Shown here: piece by piece, positions 11,218-47,983 of the stretch
How the letters are laid out: every line of letters begins with the position of its first letter
How positions within the stretch are numbered: position 1 is the first letter of the stretch
DNA from: a virus
Virus record (IMG/VR): IMGVR_UViG_3300042484_000873
Coordinates: 25,585-89,584 of that record
Length of the DNA: 64,000 nucleotides
Strand: one strand, 5' to 3'
The notes under the pieces: model-generated
What the model was told of the DNA's origin: nothing
Seen by the model: only the letters and a program-made list of their open reading frames with translations
Databases searched by the model: none
Translations under genes and position numbers: made by a program

Positions 11218-12432
11218 ATGGCATACACAATTATTAAAAGCGATGGTACAGTACTAACAACCATTGCTGATGGAACTATTAATACTACTAGTACAAGTTT
11301 AGGCTTGCCTGGTAGAAACTTTGCAGGATATGGACAAACTGTAGACACAAACTTTGTGCACCAGCTTGAAAATTATGCGTCAAACACACCACCGGCTAAC
11401 CCACTACGTGGTCAGTTGTGGTATGATATTAACAATAGTTCGTTAAAAGTATGTCCTACTGATAATCAAACAAACGCAAATGCTTGGGTTACACTTGCAA
11501 CTAGTTCAGGTACATCTGTGACAACATTTGGCTCAGTTTCGGTAACTGGTAACTTACAATCAAATAATATCACATCAGTAAATGCTATTGTTGGGGATAC
11601 AATTACCGTTCGTTTAGCTACAGTAACTGCAAATGCTACTATTGCTAATGCCGCAGTTACAACAGGTAACATTGGTACATTAAACACTCAAGTTATCACA
11701 ACTGGTTCAAACAGTACGGGTGGCACAATTACTGGTACTTGGACAGCTAACGGCGGATCAGCTGGCAACACTATGATTATTACTAACGGTAACTTAGTTG
11801 CTGTTACTGGTATAAAGACAGATAATTATTACTATGCTAACGGTAGTCCATTCAATCCAACTGGTACGTATAATAATGGTAATGTTTTTGACTATTTAAC
11901 TGGATCAAATGCAATTGTTCAATTCAGTGGTAACATTGCACCCGGCAGAGTTACGACACAAGTTATCACTGCTGGTGCAAACACAACAGCAGGCAACATT
12001 ACTGGTAATTGGACATTGACTTCAGGTTCACGATTAAATGCAACATACGCTGACTTGGCAGAACGCTTTGAAGCAGATGCTTATTACGATGCCGGAACAG
12101 TTGTTGAAATGGGCGGAGATAAAGAAATTACTGCGGTTCAATATGAATTGTCAGAAGATGTATTTGGTGTTGTTTCGGAGACAGCCGGTTATTTAATGAA
12201 TGCTATGGCAGGAGATGATTCTACGCACCCTCCAATCGCTGTAGGTGGTCGTGTAAAAGTTAAAGTGGACGGTGTAGTTAAAAAAGGTCAACGTCTTGTT
12301 TCTGCTGGTAATGGCATTGCACGTGCAGCCAAATCAGGAGAAGCAACTGCTTTCAACATCATAGGTCGTGCTTTAGAAAATAAAACAACAACTGGCGCGG
12401 GTGTAGTAGAAGCATTCGTTAAAATTAATTAA
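11218..12432 (+). CDS. Tail fibre/spike protein with a C-terminal intramolecular-chaperone (peptidase G2-like) domain
   Basis: N-terminal LENYAS..PP.NPLRGQLWYD anchor, Thr/Asn/Gly-rich body, C-terminal YADLAE...GTVV...GRVKVKV.G.VKKGQRLV. Confidence 0.7.
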   Translation: MAYTIIKSDGTVLTTIADGTINTTSTSLGLPGRNFAGYGQTVDTNFVHQLENYASNTPPANPLRGQLWYDINNSSLKVCPTDNQTNANAWVTLATSSGTSVTTFGSVSVTGNLQSNNITSVNAIVGDTITVRLATVTANATIANAAVTTGNIGTLNTQVITTGSNSTGGTITGTWTANGGSAGNTMIITNGNLVAVTGIKTDNYYYANGSPFNPTGTYNNGNVFDYLTGSNAIVQFSGNIAPGRVTTQVITAGANTTAGNITGNWTLTSGSRLNATYADLAERFEADAYYDAGTVVEMGGDKEITAVQYELSEDVFGVVSETAGYLMNAMAGDDSTHPPIAVGGRVKVKVDGVVKKGQRLVSAGNGIARAAKSGEATAFNIIGRALENKTTTGAGVVEAFVKIN

Positions 12433-23449: not shown

Positions 23450-26031
23450 GGCTTTTGTATCAAAATCATTGTATCTTCTTTATTTACCACTTTCCATCCC
23501 TGAGAAATTAAGTTATTGATTTCTTTATAAACATCTGGTCCCATATTCTCATCATATAAGTGTGCCATAATACAACCGTCATCTTTAAGATGTTGAATCC
23601 AAAAGTTTAAATTTTTAATAAATTCAGGGTTGTGATGAATATTAATTAACACCAGATCTACTGGTGTAGTCCAATCATTGAATCTAGGGGTAGAACGTTC
23701 ATGTAGAGTTATGTTTGTGCATTTATTAGTAATTCGTTTCCATGCTAATTTACCACTAGTGTCGGCTTCAAAATCTTGAGATAATCCTTCAAGTAAACTT
23801 GGGCCCATTTTTTTATCTACGCCGTTGTCGCTACACATATCAAGCAACTGTTCTCGTATCCAAGGCTTTACCGATTCGAATTCAGTTAATAAAGAACGTT
23901 CATTAAATGCTTCTATACTATGAATGTTAAGATATTTGTTTCCACGTGCTAAAATTGCGGCTCTACCACCTAATCCGGAATTTACTTCTACCACCACACA
24001 ATTAGGGTCTAACTGTTTTGCTGTTCTTAATAACATAAAACGTTCAGCTACCGATATCGATGAAAAACAACTTTCTAATGGTAACACATTAGAATTACCA
24101 AATTCTGATTTAATATAAAATACTCTATTTGCTCTAGTTTTTGTTGATTCCGACCATTTACCAGATTCTTCAAAAGTGTGTGCAAATCCATCTATATCAA
24201 CTATATCTTTGTAATTGTTTTTAAATTTAAAATCACACTTAGTAACATAATTACCATCATCGTCAATTTTAAAATATAGATTGGCTATGTAGGTATGTGA
24301 GTCCGGTGCAATAGTAAATATAAAATCTCTATGGTCTAGTTCAGGATTAAAGTTTAGTGTCATTTCAAATCCACCACGAACTCTCCATAGCATTCTAAAG
24401 AAACCAAAAGCCTCATTCATTACGCTATTAGCAAAATCACCCTTATCAGATTTAATGATAGACATGAAATCAAAATTTTCGTATTCTACATGCTCATTTA
24501 TATATTCACTATCAAATTTTAGTTCATAATGATCGGTTATATCTCCTTCTGAACTGTGAACATTGGTTATAGTTCCACCGTATTCTTTGCATAGATGCAA
24601 CCATATATGTATTAATTTAATTCTGATATGCCTATGTAATTTTGTATTCATTAAATCTAATGAATACCATCCACCTAACCAAGGTGAATTTCTAGGGTTG
24701 ATATTGAATTTTTCTCTGTCATCATACGCCGAACCCATATTGTCGCCTAGACCAGGCCCCGGGCTACTTGCAATAATTCTATTTCTATGATTCCATAACA
24801 TATTAAATGTATGTGTCAATGCTTCAATATCCTCACCGGGGGCACCAATCACCAAACAAGCAGATACTTTCATGCCCACTTTATCAGAATCAATGATGTT
24901 TTGATTAATCTCTGCTACAGTATTTTTCTTATTGATTGCTTTTAATACTTTATCACTACCAGTTTCAATGCCATAGTTAAAGCCTTGACAACCTGCTGCC
25001 TTCATTAACTTATAGAATTCTAAATCCATTCTACCATCAGCACGTGCATAACCCCACCAATTAAGATTTAGTTTTCTATCTACTAGCTCTTGACAAAAAC
25101 TTCTAAACTCTTTTAAATTACCATTCATCAAACTATCAACAAATGATATAAAACTAATACCGTATTTTTTAACTTGATATTCTAATTCATCAACAACTGT
25201 TTGTGCACCTCTGTCACGGAATTTCCAATAATATACTTCTGTGCAGTAACTACATTTGGCTATACAGCCTCTACTAATTTCAGCACAGATAGAATTTTTA
25301 CCCCAATATCTGGTTAAGTCAAAATCACTATAATCAGGATAAGGTAGACTATCAATGTCAATGCGTGTATCACTATATAACCCACCTATTGCCGGTTGTA
25401 AAGGTTTGATACCGTTTTCCCAATTCTCTAAGAAATCTAATATGTTCTGCTCACTCTCACCGATGAAGTAATAATCAACGTTGGCTGGTTTTTTATAATA
25501 TTCTTCATGGCATTCAGGTCCACCCATAACAATAGTGATATCAGGTCTTCTTTTACGGATCTGATTAATCATCCACTTAGTGGGTAACAAGTTAGTATAA
25601 TAAGAACTGAAGCCTATAATATCAGGGTTTTCATCTAATAGTATTTCTAAATATTCTTTTAATATCGGTTCATATGTAGGATGAATACGTTTATAATATT
25701 CATCACCTTGCCACCACCAATAATTTGCACCATTCCATGCATCATCTAAACTTGGATTAGCTTCTTTTATAAGATAATGTGAATCAACATTGAAATCATG
25801 CACAATAGTTGGATAACCAGCTTCACGCATCAGTGCTGATAACCTAGCCAAATTATATGGAGGCATGTATATAGCCCAACTACCTAACACACATAATGTC
25901 ATTTTTGTTTTACGAGTACCTACATTAACTCCCACTGATTTTACATTCGATCTAGCCTTTCGTGCAGGTTTGAATGTAATATCAGTGTTTTTTGGAAATA
26001 AGTTTTGTGCTATCCAGGTGTCTTTATCCAT
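23446..26031 (-). CDS. Cobalamin-dependent (class B) radical SAM methyltransferase fused to a C-terminal class I methyltransferase-like domain
   Basis: PPYNLARL, PDIIGFS, GGP, IGESE (B12-binding domain); SRGCIAKCSYC; GIETGS; C-terminal domain is a paralog of 31916-32578. Confidence 0.88.
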   Translation of the reverse strand: MDKDTWIAQNLFPKNTDITFKPARKARSNVKSVGVNVGTRKTKMTLCVLGSWAIYMPPYNLARLSALMREAGYPTIVHDFNVDSHYLIKEANPSLDDAWNGANYWWWQGDEYYKRIHPTYEPILKEYLEILLDENPDIIGFSSYYTNLLPTKWMINQIRKRRPDITIVMGGPECHEEYYKKPANVDYYFIGESEQNILDFLENWENGIKPLQPAIGGLYSDTRIDIDSLPYPDYSDFDLTRYWGKNSICAEISRGCIAKCSYCTEVYYWKFRDRGAQTVVDELEYQVKKYGISFISFVDSLMNGNLKEFRSFCQELVDRKLNLNWWGYARADGRMDLEFYKLMKAAGCQGFNYGIETGSDKVLKAINKKNTVAEINQNIIDSDKVGMKVSACLVIGAPGEDIEALTHTFNMLWNHRNRIIASSPGPGLGDNMGSAYDDREKFNINPRNSPWLGGWYSLDLMNTKLHRHIRIKLIHIWLHLCKEYGGTITNVHSSEGDITDHYELKFDSEYINEHVEYENFDFMSIIKSDKGDFANSVMNEAFGFFRMLWRVRGGFEMTLNFNPELDHRDFIFTIAPDSHTYIANLYFKIDDDGNYVTKCDFKFKNNYKDIVDIDGFAHTFEESGKWSESTKTRANRVFYIKSEFGNSNVLPLESCFSSISVAERFMLLRTAKQLDPNCVVVEVNSGLGGRAAILARGNKYLNIHSIEAFNERSLLTEFESVKPWIREQLLDMCSDNGVDKKMGPSLLEGLSQDFEADTSGKLAWKRITNKCTNITLHERSTPRFNDWTTPVDLVLINIHHNPEFIKNLNFWIQHLKDDGCIMAHLYDENMGPDVYKEINNLISQGWKVVNKEDTMILIQKP

Positions 26032-41121: not shown

Positions 41122-41135
41122 CATATCCAAAATAG

Positions 41136-41164
41136 TTGCAATCAACCATGTGTTATAGTATAAT
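41136..41164 (+). promoter_or_regulatory. Sigma70 promoter of tmRNA
   Basis: TTGCAA-17 nt-TATAAT. Confidence 0.75.
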
Positions 41165-41170
41165 GTAAGT

Positions 41171-41517
41171 TAAGACTGTATGAAGTAGATAGAAACGGAT
41201 TCAAGACGCGGGGGCAGTGCCCGCCAGGTCCACCAAAAGCATACTGGCATCTGGATGATGGGCCCGACGGGGTCAGTGGTTCAATTCCACTACAGGCAAT
41301 GAGGTTCGAATCCTCACAGTGTGCTTTTGATGGGCCTGACACAGGATCGATTGGGTCAAGAGTATTGAAATGGACAGTCCGGCAATGTAGAAGCCGTTAG
41401 GATTGGGGGAACCCGGTCGAAGACACTAAAAAAGTAACCGCAAACGACTCACAGTTCGCATTAGCTGCCTAAACTCAGCTTAGGGTAAGACATACCTCGT
41501 AACAGAAACTCAAAATT
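41171..41517 (+). ncRNA. ssrA: Circularly permuted (two-piece) tmRNA
   Basis: The acceptor piece comes first (T-arm GCGGG-GGCAGTG-CCCGC, then CAGGTCC-A-CCA ending at 41235). The coding piece starts GGGCCTG at 41332, giving a 7-bp acceptor stem with G3:U70. P2 pairings are 41198-41204/41351-41357 and 41174-41179/41374-41379. The tag frame ANDSQFALAA* is at 41440-41472. Confidence 0.93.
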
Positions 41518-41537
41518 GGCTCTTCGGAGCCTTTTTT
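41518..41537 (+). terminator. Intrinsic terminator after tmRNA
   Basis: GGCTC-TTCG-GAGCC followed by T6. Confidence 0.85.
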
Positions 41538-47576: not shown

Positions 47577-47983
47577 TGCATATTGGAACTAGTTTAGGTA
47601 GATGTTTGCGTAGCATCCTATTAGGCGAAGTATCCGAGGATGATGTTTTATTGATTATTACTCGCACTATGACTGCTGATTTAGAAGAATTTATATTTAT
47701 AGTAAAACAATACTACGATGAAGGTAATTATACATCACGTAATCCACAGGATTATGACCTTTCAGTCAAACCTTGGGAAGAAGTAGAAGCACTAGCAACA
47801 CGATTGTACACTAGTGGCAAGATTCACCAACCTAGAAACTTTGCGACTTTGGGTAGTCAGTTCATCCACCCTGATCTAAACAATGATCTTTGGGTAGATG
47901 TATCTCCGAAGAATCGTAATAGCACGCCTATGGTTGTTGAAGCATATGAAAAGTATAAGATGTTGGATGCACTAACCAAATGA
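47573..47983 (+). CDS. Hypothetical protein
   Basis: 136 aa, ATGA overlaps, GKIHQPR motif. Confidence 0.7.
   Translation: MMHIGTSLGRCLRSILLGEVSEDDVLLIITRTMTADLEEFIFIVKQYYDEGNYTSRNPQDYDLSVKPWEEVEALATRLYTSGKIHQPRNFATLGSQFIHPDLNNDLWVDVSPKNRNSTPMVVEAYEKYKMLDALTK

Follow-up and report, generated by a model that had tools for sequence, protein, structure and literature searches.

What is a spacer for, if it is excised from one RNA and looks by itself like another? The question is raised by a two-piece (permuted) transfer-messenger RNA (tmRNA) gene at 41174-41472 of the DNA analysed here, a stretch of 64,000 nucleotides (nt) that we call the window (positions 25,585 to 89,584 of IMG/VR virus record IMGVR_UViG_3300042484_000873, an 89.6-kb record from a lake phage, with a completeness of 17% by CheckV). 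Between the acceptor piece and the coding piece of this tmRNA lies a 96-nt spacer, which an earlier note, made from the window's sequence, had described as a tRNA mimic with two canonical T-arms. We find that the spacer is, judged by its fold and by covariation, a conserved, structured, non-decoding relative of tRNA, that it belongs to a family for which we have coined the label 2T (not a published family), and that other members stand as separate genes in phage tRNA arrays. On this evidence it is probably an autonomous tRNA-like RNA gene lodged as cargo in an exchangeable, excised slot.

Fold of the tmRNA spacer

The tmRNA gene was recognized by RF04321 (102.3 bits against a cut-off of 47) and, over 41132-41516, by RF01849 (74.5 bits). 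In both alignments the spacer appears as an insertion that separates the acceptor-stem halves; it is the intervening segment of the gene, bounded by the encoded CCA of the acceptor piece on the 5' side and by G41332, where the coding piece starts, on the 3' side. Every element that the earlier note had placed in the spacer was found at its position by reading and by folding (coordinates in Table 1). The closing stem has 13 bp with one wobble (41234-41246/41317-41329, wobble T41242.G41321) and is followed by a D-like arm with GG in its loop, a small hairpin with a GACG loop and two perfect T-arms, A and B, each with a 5-bp stem and a 7-nt TTCRAWT loop; T-arm B lies directly on the closing stem (junction 41316/41317). 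As described before, the spacer has neither a 7-nt anticodon loop nor a CCA of its own, and the real T-loop of the tmRNA (41213-41219) is non-canonical, being of the type seen in the alpha_tmRNA consensus. With ViennaRNA the minimum free energy (MFE) structure and the centroid both equal the described structure, at -42.5 kcal/mol compared with -26.0 +/- 3.2 for 200 dinucleotide shuffles (z -5.14), none of which was as stable. The same five helices make up the MFE structure of three homologues (L405, L266 and that of phage S-CREM1, see below), each folded alone. The proposal that two tRNA-like domains stand head to head also held in the predicted precursor, where a 1x1 mismatch separates the closing stem from the acceptor stem of the tmRNA, on which it is stacked; the long and nearly continuous helix that is predicted to result (8 + 13 bp) could be an RNase III site.

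The spacer is not a canonical tRNA. ARAGORN reported no tRNA gene in the window, RF00005 (cut-off 29 bits) matched nothing in the whole 89.6-kb record, in which no tRNA was found, and the best match of the tRNA clan when Rfam was run on the spacer alone was tRNA-Sec with 16.3 bits, below the cut-off of 47. Two features of canonical tRNAs are present, T-arm B abutting the closing stem and the GG of the D-like loop; against these, a 4-nt GACG loop occupies the place of the anticodon arm, both ends are paired in the 13-bp helix and no CCA is encoded within the spacer. A tRNA-like processing signal, as in mascRNA or t-elements, was tried as well and rejected (mascRNA-menRNA 11.2 bits against a cut-off of 42.5; relatives with identical flanks, described below, manage without a tRNA-like spacer).

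A family of tRNA look-alikes in phage tRNA arrays

Viral sequences were scanned for pairs of T-loop motifs separated by 8-25 nt, which gave at least 117 loci, many of them with the layout of the window spacer (this and the other collection counts below are lower bounds from a sample). The common build comprises an acceptor-like stem, a D-like hairpin, a 5-bp stub with a GACG loop at the site of the anticodon arm, a T-arm in place of a long variable arm, a linker with GGCAA and a second T-arm, which stacks on the acceptor-like stem. A covariance model, R1, was built on 13 elements from tRNA arrays with their five helices and with no window-type sequence in training. Its sole match in the 64-kb window, and in the 89.6-kb record too, is at 41241-41322 (48.8 bits, E 1.2e-9, the E-value being rough), and the alignment is full length (model positions 1-89 of 89) with the five helices and the linker present; the inner seven pairs of the closing stem are the counterpart of the acceptor-like stem in stand-alone genes. 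Scores of at least 45 bits were reached in 25 of the at least 117 loci, a number that includes the 13 training sequences and, in addition, several near-copies of them. Independent matches are L280 (58.9 bits), L266 (55.2), L183 (51.9), L267 (50.4), L279 (47.6) and L188 (45.7), while the top real tRNA among the loci searched, called tRNA-Gln by ARAGORN (L183:141-212), scored 37.7 bits.

The structure is conserved by compensatory changes in every helix, which is the outcome of a comparison among homologues that the earlier note had proposed. In the family alignment A4 (29 sequences, fitted to the model) paired cells make up 97.5%, compared with 66.1% in shuffles, and both partners have changed in 22 of 26 pairs. 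Covariation scored 0.813 against 0.197, and none of 500 shuffles came up to the score of 0.813, in a control inflated by relatedness; slid controls gave 0.085-0.137. A second set, aligned with MAFFT and not fitted to structure, holds the close homologues only (window, L161, L405, L266 and L280). Here the paired cells amount to 96.1%, and both partners have changed in 12 of 26 pairs, compared with 0-4 in slid controls; in the tetraloop hairpin all five pairs vary, four of them with changes on both sides.

In most phages the RNA is such a stand-alone gene, lying in a tRNA array with tRNA-like spacing, as in L175, where the element at 11842-11929 sits between a tRNA-Ser ending at 11836 and a tRNA-Ile starting at 11932. 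The acceptor-like stems of the stand-alone copies have 7-9 bp, and the bases that follow these copies on the 3' side are not conserved and encode no CCA. The Rfam tRNA model stayed below its cut-off on all eight full elements scanned, and ARAGORN forced four of the eight into tRNA calls (Leu(cag) in L204; Ser(cga) in L233, L267 and L191). When one member was compared by blastn, three cultured Synechococcus phages were matched (S-CREM1, B3 and B23). The S-CREM1 gene (OP535465.1:44482-44570, L407:2501-2589) has tRNA-Phe and tRNA-Ile as its neighbours, filling the unannotated gap between them, and reaches 111.1 bits with R1; that of B3 (MN695334.1, about 47604-47688, L408:1983-2067) likewise occupies an unannotated gap of the tRNA array and scores 76.7 bits. 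Several 'tRNA-Pseudo' features are annotated near the 2T gene in the B3 record. Cellular genomes yielded at least 120 double-motif loci, and R1 on the first 100 of these gave nothing above 36.8 bits; by eye the cellular loci (L282-L401, from bacteria and archaea) are mostly a tRNA with a duplicated 3' fragment, resembling integration-site repeats, and some others are coding repeats. The window copy does not share the array location, and we read the tmRNA spacer as a variant location of 2T, common to the window and to L161, L411 and L266.

The same cassette in unrelated tmRNA genes

These four are the spacer-lodged copies found. L161 has the same tmRNA core and the same spacer with one difference (41316 A to G, pairing kept), but its flanks and tag region bear no relation to those of the window. 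In L411 the tmRNA gene is of beta type (RF01850, 159.9 bits) and has a canonical T-loop; its spacer is identical to that of the window at 92 of 96 positions, whereas the acceptor piece agrees at 39 of 62 and the start of the coding piece at 37 of 89 (42-63% for the mature parts). The four spacer differences (C:G to T:A at 41264:41271, A to G at 41316, G to A at 41321) are all in helices and all keep pairing. L266 represents a third tmRNA lineage with the same layout and with the copy again in the spacer. In its tetraloop hairpin four of the five pairs are altered on both sides and the fifth on one, yet all remain paired and the GACG loop is kept; the first pair of T-arm A is also altered on both sides. 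Comparison of spacers and mature parts shows that the cassette has been transferred between unrelated tmRNA genes, alpha-like and beta-type, so the spacer behaves as a mobile-gene slot for RNAs and proteins.

The close homologue L405 has the same layout just after a CCA, on a contig with tRNA genes; its closing stem is 18 bp, its stub is rewritten with a GATA loop, and pair 3 of T-arm B is C:G where the window has A:T. Just downstream of this element (L405:1400-1500, - strand) lies a tandem hairpin with the same type of closing-stem sequence and an unrelated interior, which suggests serial cassettes with common stem ends. An exact 21-mer over T-arm B and the closing stem had no match among viral contigs, and the relatives differ there by one base. 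Run on 100 of at least 119 related tmRNA loci, R1 gave 24.7 bits at best and no further spacer-lodged copy; L102-L120 lay outside that search, and their spacers, on reading, showed no second T-arm. By blastn the tmRNA region (461 nt) had no match among 50,697 phage records.

The spacer is an exchangeable slot

The related loci were collected as viral contigs with an exact 21-mer from the T-arm of the tmRNA itself (at least 119 contigs). Both tmRNA halves could be placed in 106 of them, which with the window makes 107 loci, and spacer length was counted from the second base after the CCA. Among the matches listed, to which the counts of this paragraph apply, the 107 loci hold at least 66 distinct spacers of 22-381 nt. 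In 71 loci, the window included, the 10-nt acceptor strand, the CCA and the first 25 nt of the coding piece are identical, and between these identical flanks there are at least 47 distinct spacers (38-381 nt; other loci go down to 22-25 nt). Spacers without any T-arm are the majority, and an uninterrupted closing helix of at least 6 bp is found in 61 of the 66 types. Five of these types contain the strict motif GGTTCRAWTCC, where about 0.008 occurrences are expected in 7,940 nt, so that T-loop motifs are far above chance in tmRNA spacers. A Shine-Dalgarno site with an open reading frame (ORF) of at least 18 codons is present in 17 of the 66. In these phages, RNA genes and protein genes with no relation to one another replace each other in the spacer, which is an exchangeable slot.

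Five spacer ORFs (Table 1) were compared with PHROGs, which gave no family, and with Pfam, which matched one of the five (DUF2061). The Shine-Dalgarno site of the spacer ORFs is the 5' strand of the closing stem, and many of the ORFs end in a TGA within the conserved last bases before the coding piece. There is also a second RNA cassette, with a long closing stem whose sequence is near that of the window, a hairpin capped by a UNCG loop (TTCG or TACG) and one T-arm only, which lies beside the closing stem. It was not detected by R1, and it occurs both in tmRNA spacers (L124, L127, L149, L150, L151, L157 and L087) and directly after the CCA of a tRNA in tRNA arrays (L123, L133/L141, L134 and L156).

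Possible roles of the spacer RNA

A tRNA-like segment between two RNA pieces could be a processing module that recruits RNase P, RNase Z or both to part the tmRNA pieces precisely, and the earlier note had named such recruitment. This explanation predicts an RNase P cut at 41239/41240, 12 bp from T-loop B and leaving a 4-nt trailer after the CCA, and an RNase Z cut behind 41324. T-arm B and the inner seven pairs of the closing stem do form a 12-bp minihelix, which is the minimal substrate of both enzymes; the distances from the predicted cuts to the CCA and to the coding piece are 4 nt and 7 nt, and the closing stem shares its axis with the acceptor stem of the tmRNA. Nevertheless we think it quite improbable. 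The many unrelated spacers at identical flanks, most of them without a T-arm, show that a tRNA-like spacer is not needed for maturation of the tmRNA, as do the still shorter spacers elsewhere and the restriction of the strict T-loop motif to five types; the same RNA exists as a stand-alone gene without a tmRNA nearby; and both predicted cut sites are inside a continuous 13-bp helix, a position that disfavours RNase P and RNase Z alike. Nor would the spacer compensate for the odd T-loop of the tmRNA, given that the same cassette is found in L411 next to a canonical one. What survives of the earlier interpretation is the conserved tRNA look-alike with its domains head to head; the processing signal and the compensation of the T-loop are not supported.

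The RNA might instead be a tRNA of an odd kind. T-arm A would then be the anticodon arm (loop TTCAATT, anticodon CAA, or CGA in relatives), or an anticodon-blind synthetase would charge the RNA: leucyl-tRNA synthetase and seryl-tRNA synthetase ignore the anticodon, and the amino acid could be donated outside translation. The RNA is laid out overall like a class II tRNA, stand-alone copies have acceptor-like stems of 7-9 bp, and half of the elements scanned drew tRNA calls from ARAGORN. Taking the decoding and the chargeable variants together, this is nevertheless the least probable of the explanations considered, and we give it very little credence. The ends of the window RNA are locked in the 13-bp helix with no CCA of their own, and the bases that follow stand-alone copies on the 3' side are unconserved and likewise without an encoded CCA; the two loop-closing G-C pairs of arm A are invariant in 28 of 28 sequences, as in T-stems; the would-be anticodon is CAA in some close homologues and CGA in others; a pyrimidine would stand at position 37, which is unusual in a tRNA; and the Rfam tRNA model failed to reach its cut-off on any of the eight full elements.

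Alternatively the spacer may be a functionless passenger, a selfish or neutral cassette derived from a captured tRNA-like gene or a tRNA fragment, whose RNA is degraded after excision and which persists because the slot is tolerant and the conserved tmRNA flanks promote recombination. The slot is indeed hypervariable and takes unrelated cargo, T-arm A with the four bases before it is identical to the variable-loop/T-arm stretch of many real phage tRNA genes, and the rarity of spacer-lodged copies, three of the four being 96-99% identical, is compatible with recent spread. It is an unlikely explanation all the same, as all four differences of L411 and the single one of L161 keep base pairs, the tetraloop hairpin of L266 has been rewritten with its pairing and GACG loop retained, and the family is kept as a separate gene in many phages, cultured ones included.

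We return to the spacer as an autonomous RNA gene carried as cargo. As the look-alike is conserved and stands as a separate gene among tRNAs in other phages, it is probably a working small RNA and not a throw-away spacer. Several points weigh against this. The terminal helix of the spacer has 13 bp with both ends paired, compared with 7-9 bp in stand-alone genes, so the two forms may mature differently and meet different fates, and excision may be followed by nothing but degradation. Few copies are spacer-lodged (four found, none among 100 of the at least 119 related tmRNA loci), and the identity of 96-99% among three of them may reflect recent transfer more than selection at this site. Since the flanks differ, no conserved partner protein stands beside the cassette. 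The margin of R1 over real tRNAs is modest (48.8 versus 37.7 bits), the clear homologue L405 reaches only 38.7 bits, and the R1 E-values come from a short calibration. Finally, A4 contains the 13 training sequences, several of them near-identical, and one real tRNA, and its shuffle control is inflated by relatedness.

Under the cargo-gene reading, the spacer RNA would be a part of the pre-tmRNA, sharing with the tmRNA the promoter-like site at 41136-41164 for its transcription. Acceptor pieces of tmRNAs are trimmed back to the CCA, and trimming here (to 41235) would separate the spacer on one side. On the other, RNase P would make the 5' end of the coding piece (41331/41332), where, according to the accessible part of PMC11915505, it cuts in permuted tmRNAs. 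Release as a stable third RNA, as the earlier note had envisaged, gains in likelihood from the stand-alone gene copies in tRNA arrays, and the 13-bp terminal helix and the compact fold might let the freed RNA persist. Such an RNA would offer tRNA surfaces, namely its T-arms and possibly two T-loop/GG elbows, to a protein that reads tRNA shape and not the anticodon, and would engage this partner as sponge, decoy or cofactor. Lacking an anticodon loop, it cannot mimic the target of anticodon nucleases. Even granting that the spacer is a cargo gene, we would sooner expect this shape-mimic or decoy mechanism to fail than to hold, and put it forward tentatively, although mimicry of tRNA shape in general is the likeliest way for the RNA to act.

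Two elbows are conceivable in view of the two T-loops, the GG loop and a second conserved GG in the linker, whereas nothing that decoding requires has been retained. It is tempting to go further and suppose that aquatic phages encode dedicated two-elbow tRNA mimics, in which one T-loop docks with the GG of the D-like loop and the other with that of the GGCAA linker; that these mimics occupy or bridge a reader of tRNA shape, such as a defence nuclease directed at tRNA, an enzyme that modifies or repairs tRNA or the ribosomal elbow site; and that the phage tmRNA spacer is a general, strongly transcribed, RNase-P-released expression slot through which unrelated phages trade RNA and small protein genes. 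Taken as a whole this picture is speculative, and we would not expect all three parts to prove right.

Gene features and neighbouring observations

ARAGORN missed the tmRNA of the window but found that of L266, which has a similar spacer, so that annotation by ARAGORN alone would lose the gene. A mechanical ORF of 66 codons on the minus strand (41142-41342) overlaps the RNA gene and is most likely spurious. In public sequencing runs, of which contigs only were used, three metatranscriptome runs cover mature parts of the tmRNA, mostly those of relatives, and no contig of these three lies over 41244-41307. One lake-water DNA run contains a single 142-nt contig across the spacer with the L161-type base at 41316, which is uninformative on expression, processing or stability. 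Contigs that bear 2T elements hold further RNA features: a 'tRNA-???' of ARAGORN with a two-base anticodon (gc) directly upstream of the element in L204 (382-468), perhaps another aberrant tRNA-like gene; a wcaG RNA motif (L175:7677-7774, - strand, 104.5 bits); and a group I intron (L280:11152-11348, + strand, 56.6 bits).

Table 1. Features of the tmRNA gene and its spacer (window coordinates) and ORFs in the spacers of related loci (contig coordinates)
Feature	Position	Strand	Basis
Sigma-70-like promoter of tmRNA gene (TTGCAA, 17 nt, TATAAT)	41136..41164	+	Consensus scan, 10/12 matches; pattern match only
tmRNA acceptor piece, CCA encoded at 41233-41235	41174..41235	+	RF04321 alignment, precursor fold
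T-arm of the tmRNA itself, loop non-canonical	41208-41224 (loop 41213-41219)	+	RF04321 alignment, precursor fold
Closing stem, 5' strand; includes C and A of tmRNA CCA	41234..41246	+	Reading, fold, precursor fold
Intervening segment (spacer), 96 nt; not in mature RNA per family gene model	41236..41331	+	RF04321/RF01849 alignments
D-like hairpin, 4 bp, 5-nt loop TGGAT with GG	41248..41260	+	Fold; pairs covary in family
5-bp hairpin (one G.T), GACG tetraloop, at anticodon-arm place	41261..41274	+	Fold, R1 alignment
T-arm A, 5 bp, loop TTCAATT, at long-variable-arm place	41275..41291	+	Fold, R1 alignment
Linker, unpaired, with conserved GGCAA	41292..41299	+	Conserved in family alignment
T-arm B, 5 bp, loop TTCGAAT, stacked on closing stem	41300..41316	+	Fold, R1 alignment
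Closing stem, 3' strand	41317..41329	+	Reading, fold, precursor fold
tmRNA coding piece	41332..41516	+	RF04321/RF01849 alignments
Tag frame ANDSQFALAA and stop	41440-41472	+	Within tmRNA coding piece
Intrinsic-terminator-like hairpin (41518-41531) with T run to 41537	41518..41537	+	
Spacer ORF	L020:3295-3501	-	DUF2061 membrane protein, Pfam 72.6 bits
Spacer ORF	L022:2889-3245	+	No Pfam or PHROGs family
Spacer ORF	L052:1857-2222	-	No Pfam or PHROGs family
Spacer ORF	L042:4627-4938	+	No Pfam or PHROGs family
Spacer ORF	L054:967-1170	-	No Pfam or PHROGs family

Comparison with known systems

Two-piece tmRNA genes occur in Alpha- and Betaproteobacteria, Cyanobacteria and aquatic myophages (RF04321, RF01849, RF01850; accessible part of PMC9004378), and the gene of the window is a regular one, with promoter, acceptor piece and CCA, spacer, coding piece, ANDSQFALAA tag and terminator. 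In the literature on such genes, as far as its accessible text goes, the spacer is a discarded segment; here a conserved RNA gene occupies it, and in relatives protein genes do. The nearest case of location is an intact tRNA-Ala gene in the intervening sequence of one permuted tmRNA, high-scoring, canonical and called unique in the accessible part of PMC11915505. The two cases are alike in that an RNA of tRNA type lies in the excised segment of a two-piece tmRNA gene, and, to judge from the same part of that paper, unlike in that the window spacer has no anticodon loop, fails tRNA finders, has two T-arms and belongs to a family of its own.

YrlA is another tRNA mimic that is not a tRNA. According to the accessible text of Chen et al. 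(2014; PMC4201824), its modules run in the order T, acceptor-like hairpin, D, its long stem binds Ro60, and that of M. smegmatis is cut by RNase P. The window RNA resembles this description in the long terminal helix that closes a module of T-arm and D-arm, and differs from it in the order D, stub, T, T and in having the long stem at the place of the acceptor. No Y-RNA family was among the Rfam matches up to E = 10 on the spacer, and TROVE/Ro60 (PF05731) had no match in the 89.6-kb record, a fragment, so that absence from the whole phage is not implied. The comparison with YrlA models that had been suggested accordingly came out negative on both module order and Y-RNA match, and membership among YrlA and Y RNAs was rejected on these grounds together with the TROVE result.

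The earlier note had known of no described equivalent. A literature search for two-T-arm RNAs, anticodon-less phage tRNA-like genes and RNA cargo in tmRNA spacers found none either, the supplementary phage-tmRNA tables of PMC11915505 and PMC9004378 lying outside the search, and to that extent the statement holds; it is qualified by the tRNA-Ala case and by phage T5, whose GenBank record contains tRNA-like stable RNAs. RNA1, RNA2 and RNA3 of T5 (AY543070.1) are annotated as 'tRNA-like stable RNA with unknown functions' and 'putative tRNA-like RNA'. Like these, the 2T RNAs are non-decoding, tRNA-like and encoded among phage tRNA genes. In its MFE structure T5 RNA2 combines a D-like hairpin and an acceptor-like stem with a pair of 5-bp hairpins whose 7-nt loops read TTCGAWT, one hairpin of the pair being stacked on that stem; this is a likeness by MFE only and of a weak fold (z -1.23). 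Unlike 2T, the T5 RNAs are 125-144 nt long and have neither the GACG stub nor the GGCAA linker. They were rejected as members, since R1 did not match them and its best scores in the T5 region fell on real tRNAs (at most 27.1 bits), but of the known RNAs they are the nearest in kind. Species 1 and 2, the stable RNAs of the T4 tRNA cluster, are reportedly also of a close kind. To our knowledge no stable RNA of the T5 type is known in a tmRNA spacer.

What is new here is the RNA cargo in a tmRNA spacer and its link to genes of tRNA arrays. In 2T, phage tRNA arrays harbour a family of RNAs that look like tRNAs, do not decode and have gone unannotated; the genes are at present skipped or miscalled as tRNA-Leu or tRNA-Ser when phage tRNAs are annotated. 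Members in cultured cyanophages (S-CREM1, B3 and B23) make bench tests of expression, modification, partners and role feasible, and the family provides a defined and widespread case for the old question, posed by T5, of what the 'tRNA-like stable RNAs of unknown function' do in phage tRNA clusters.

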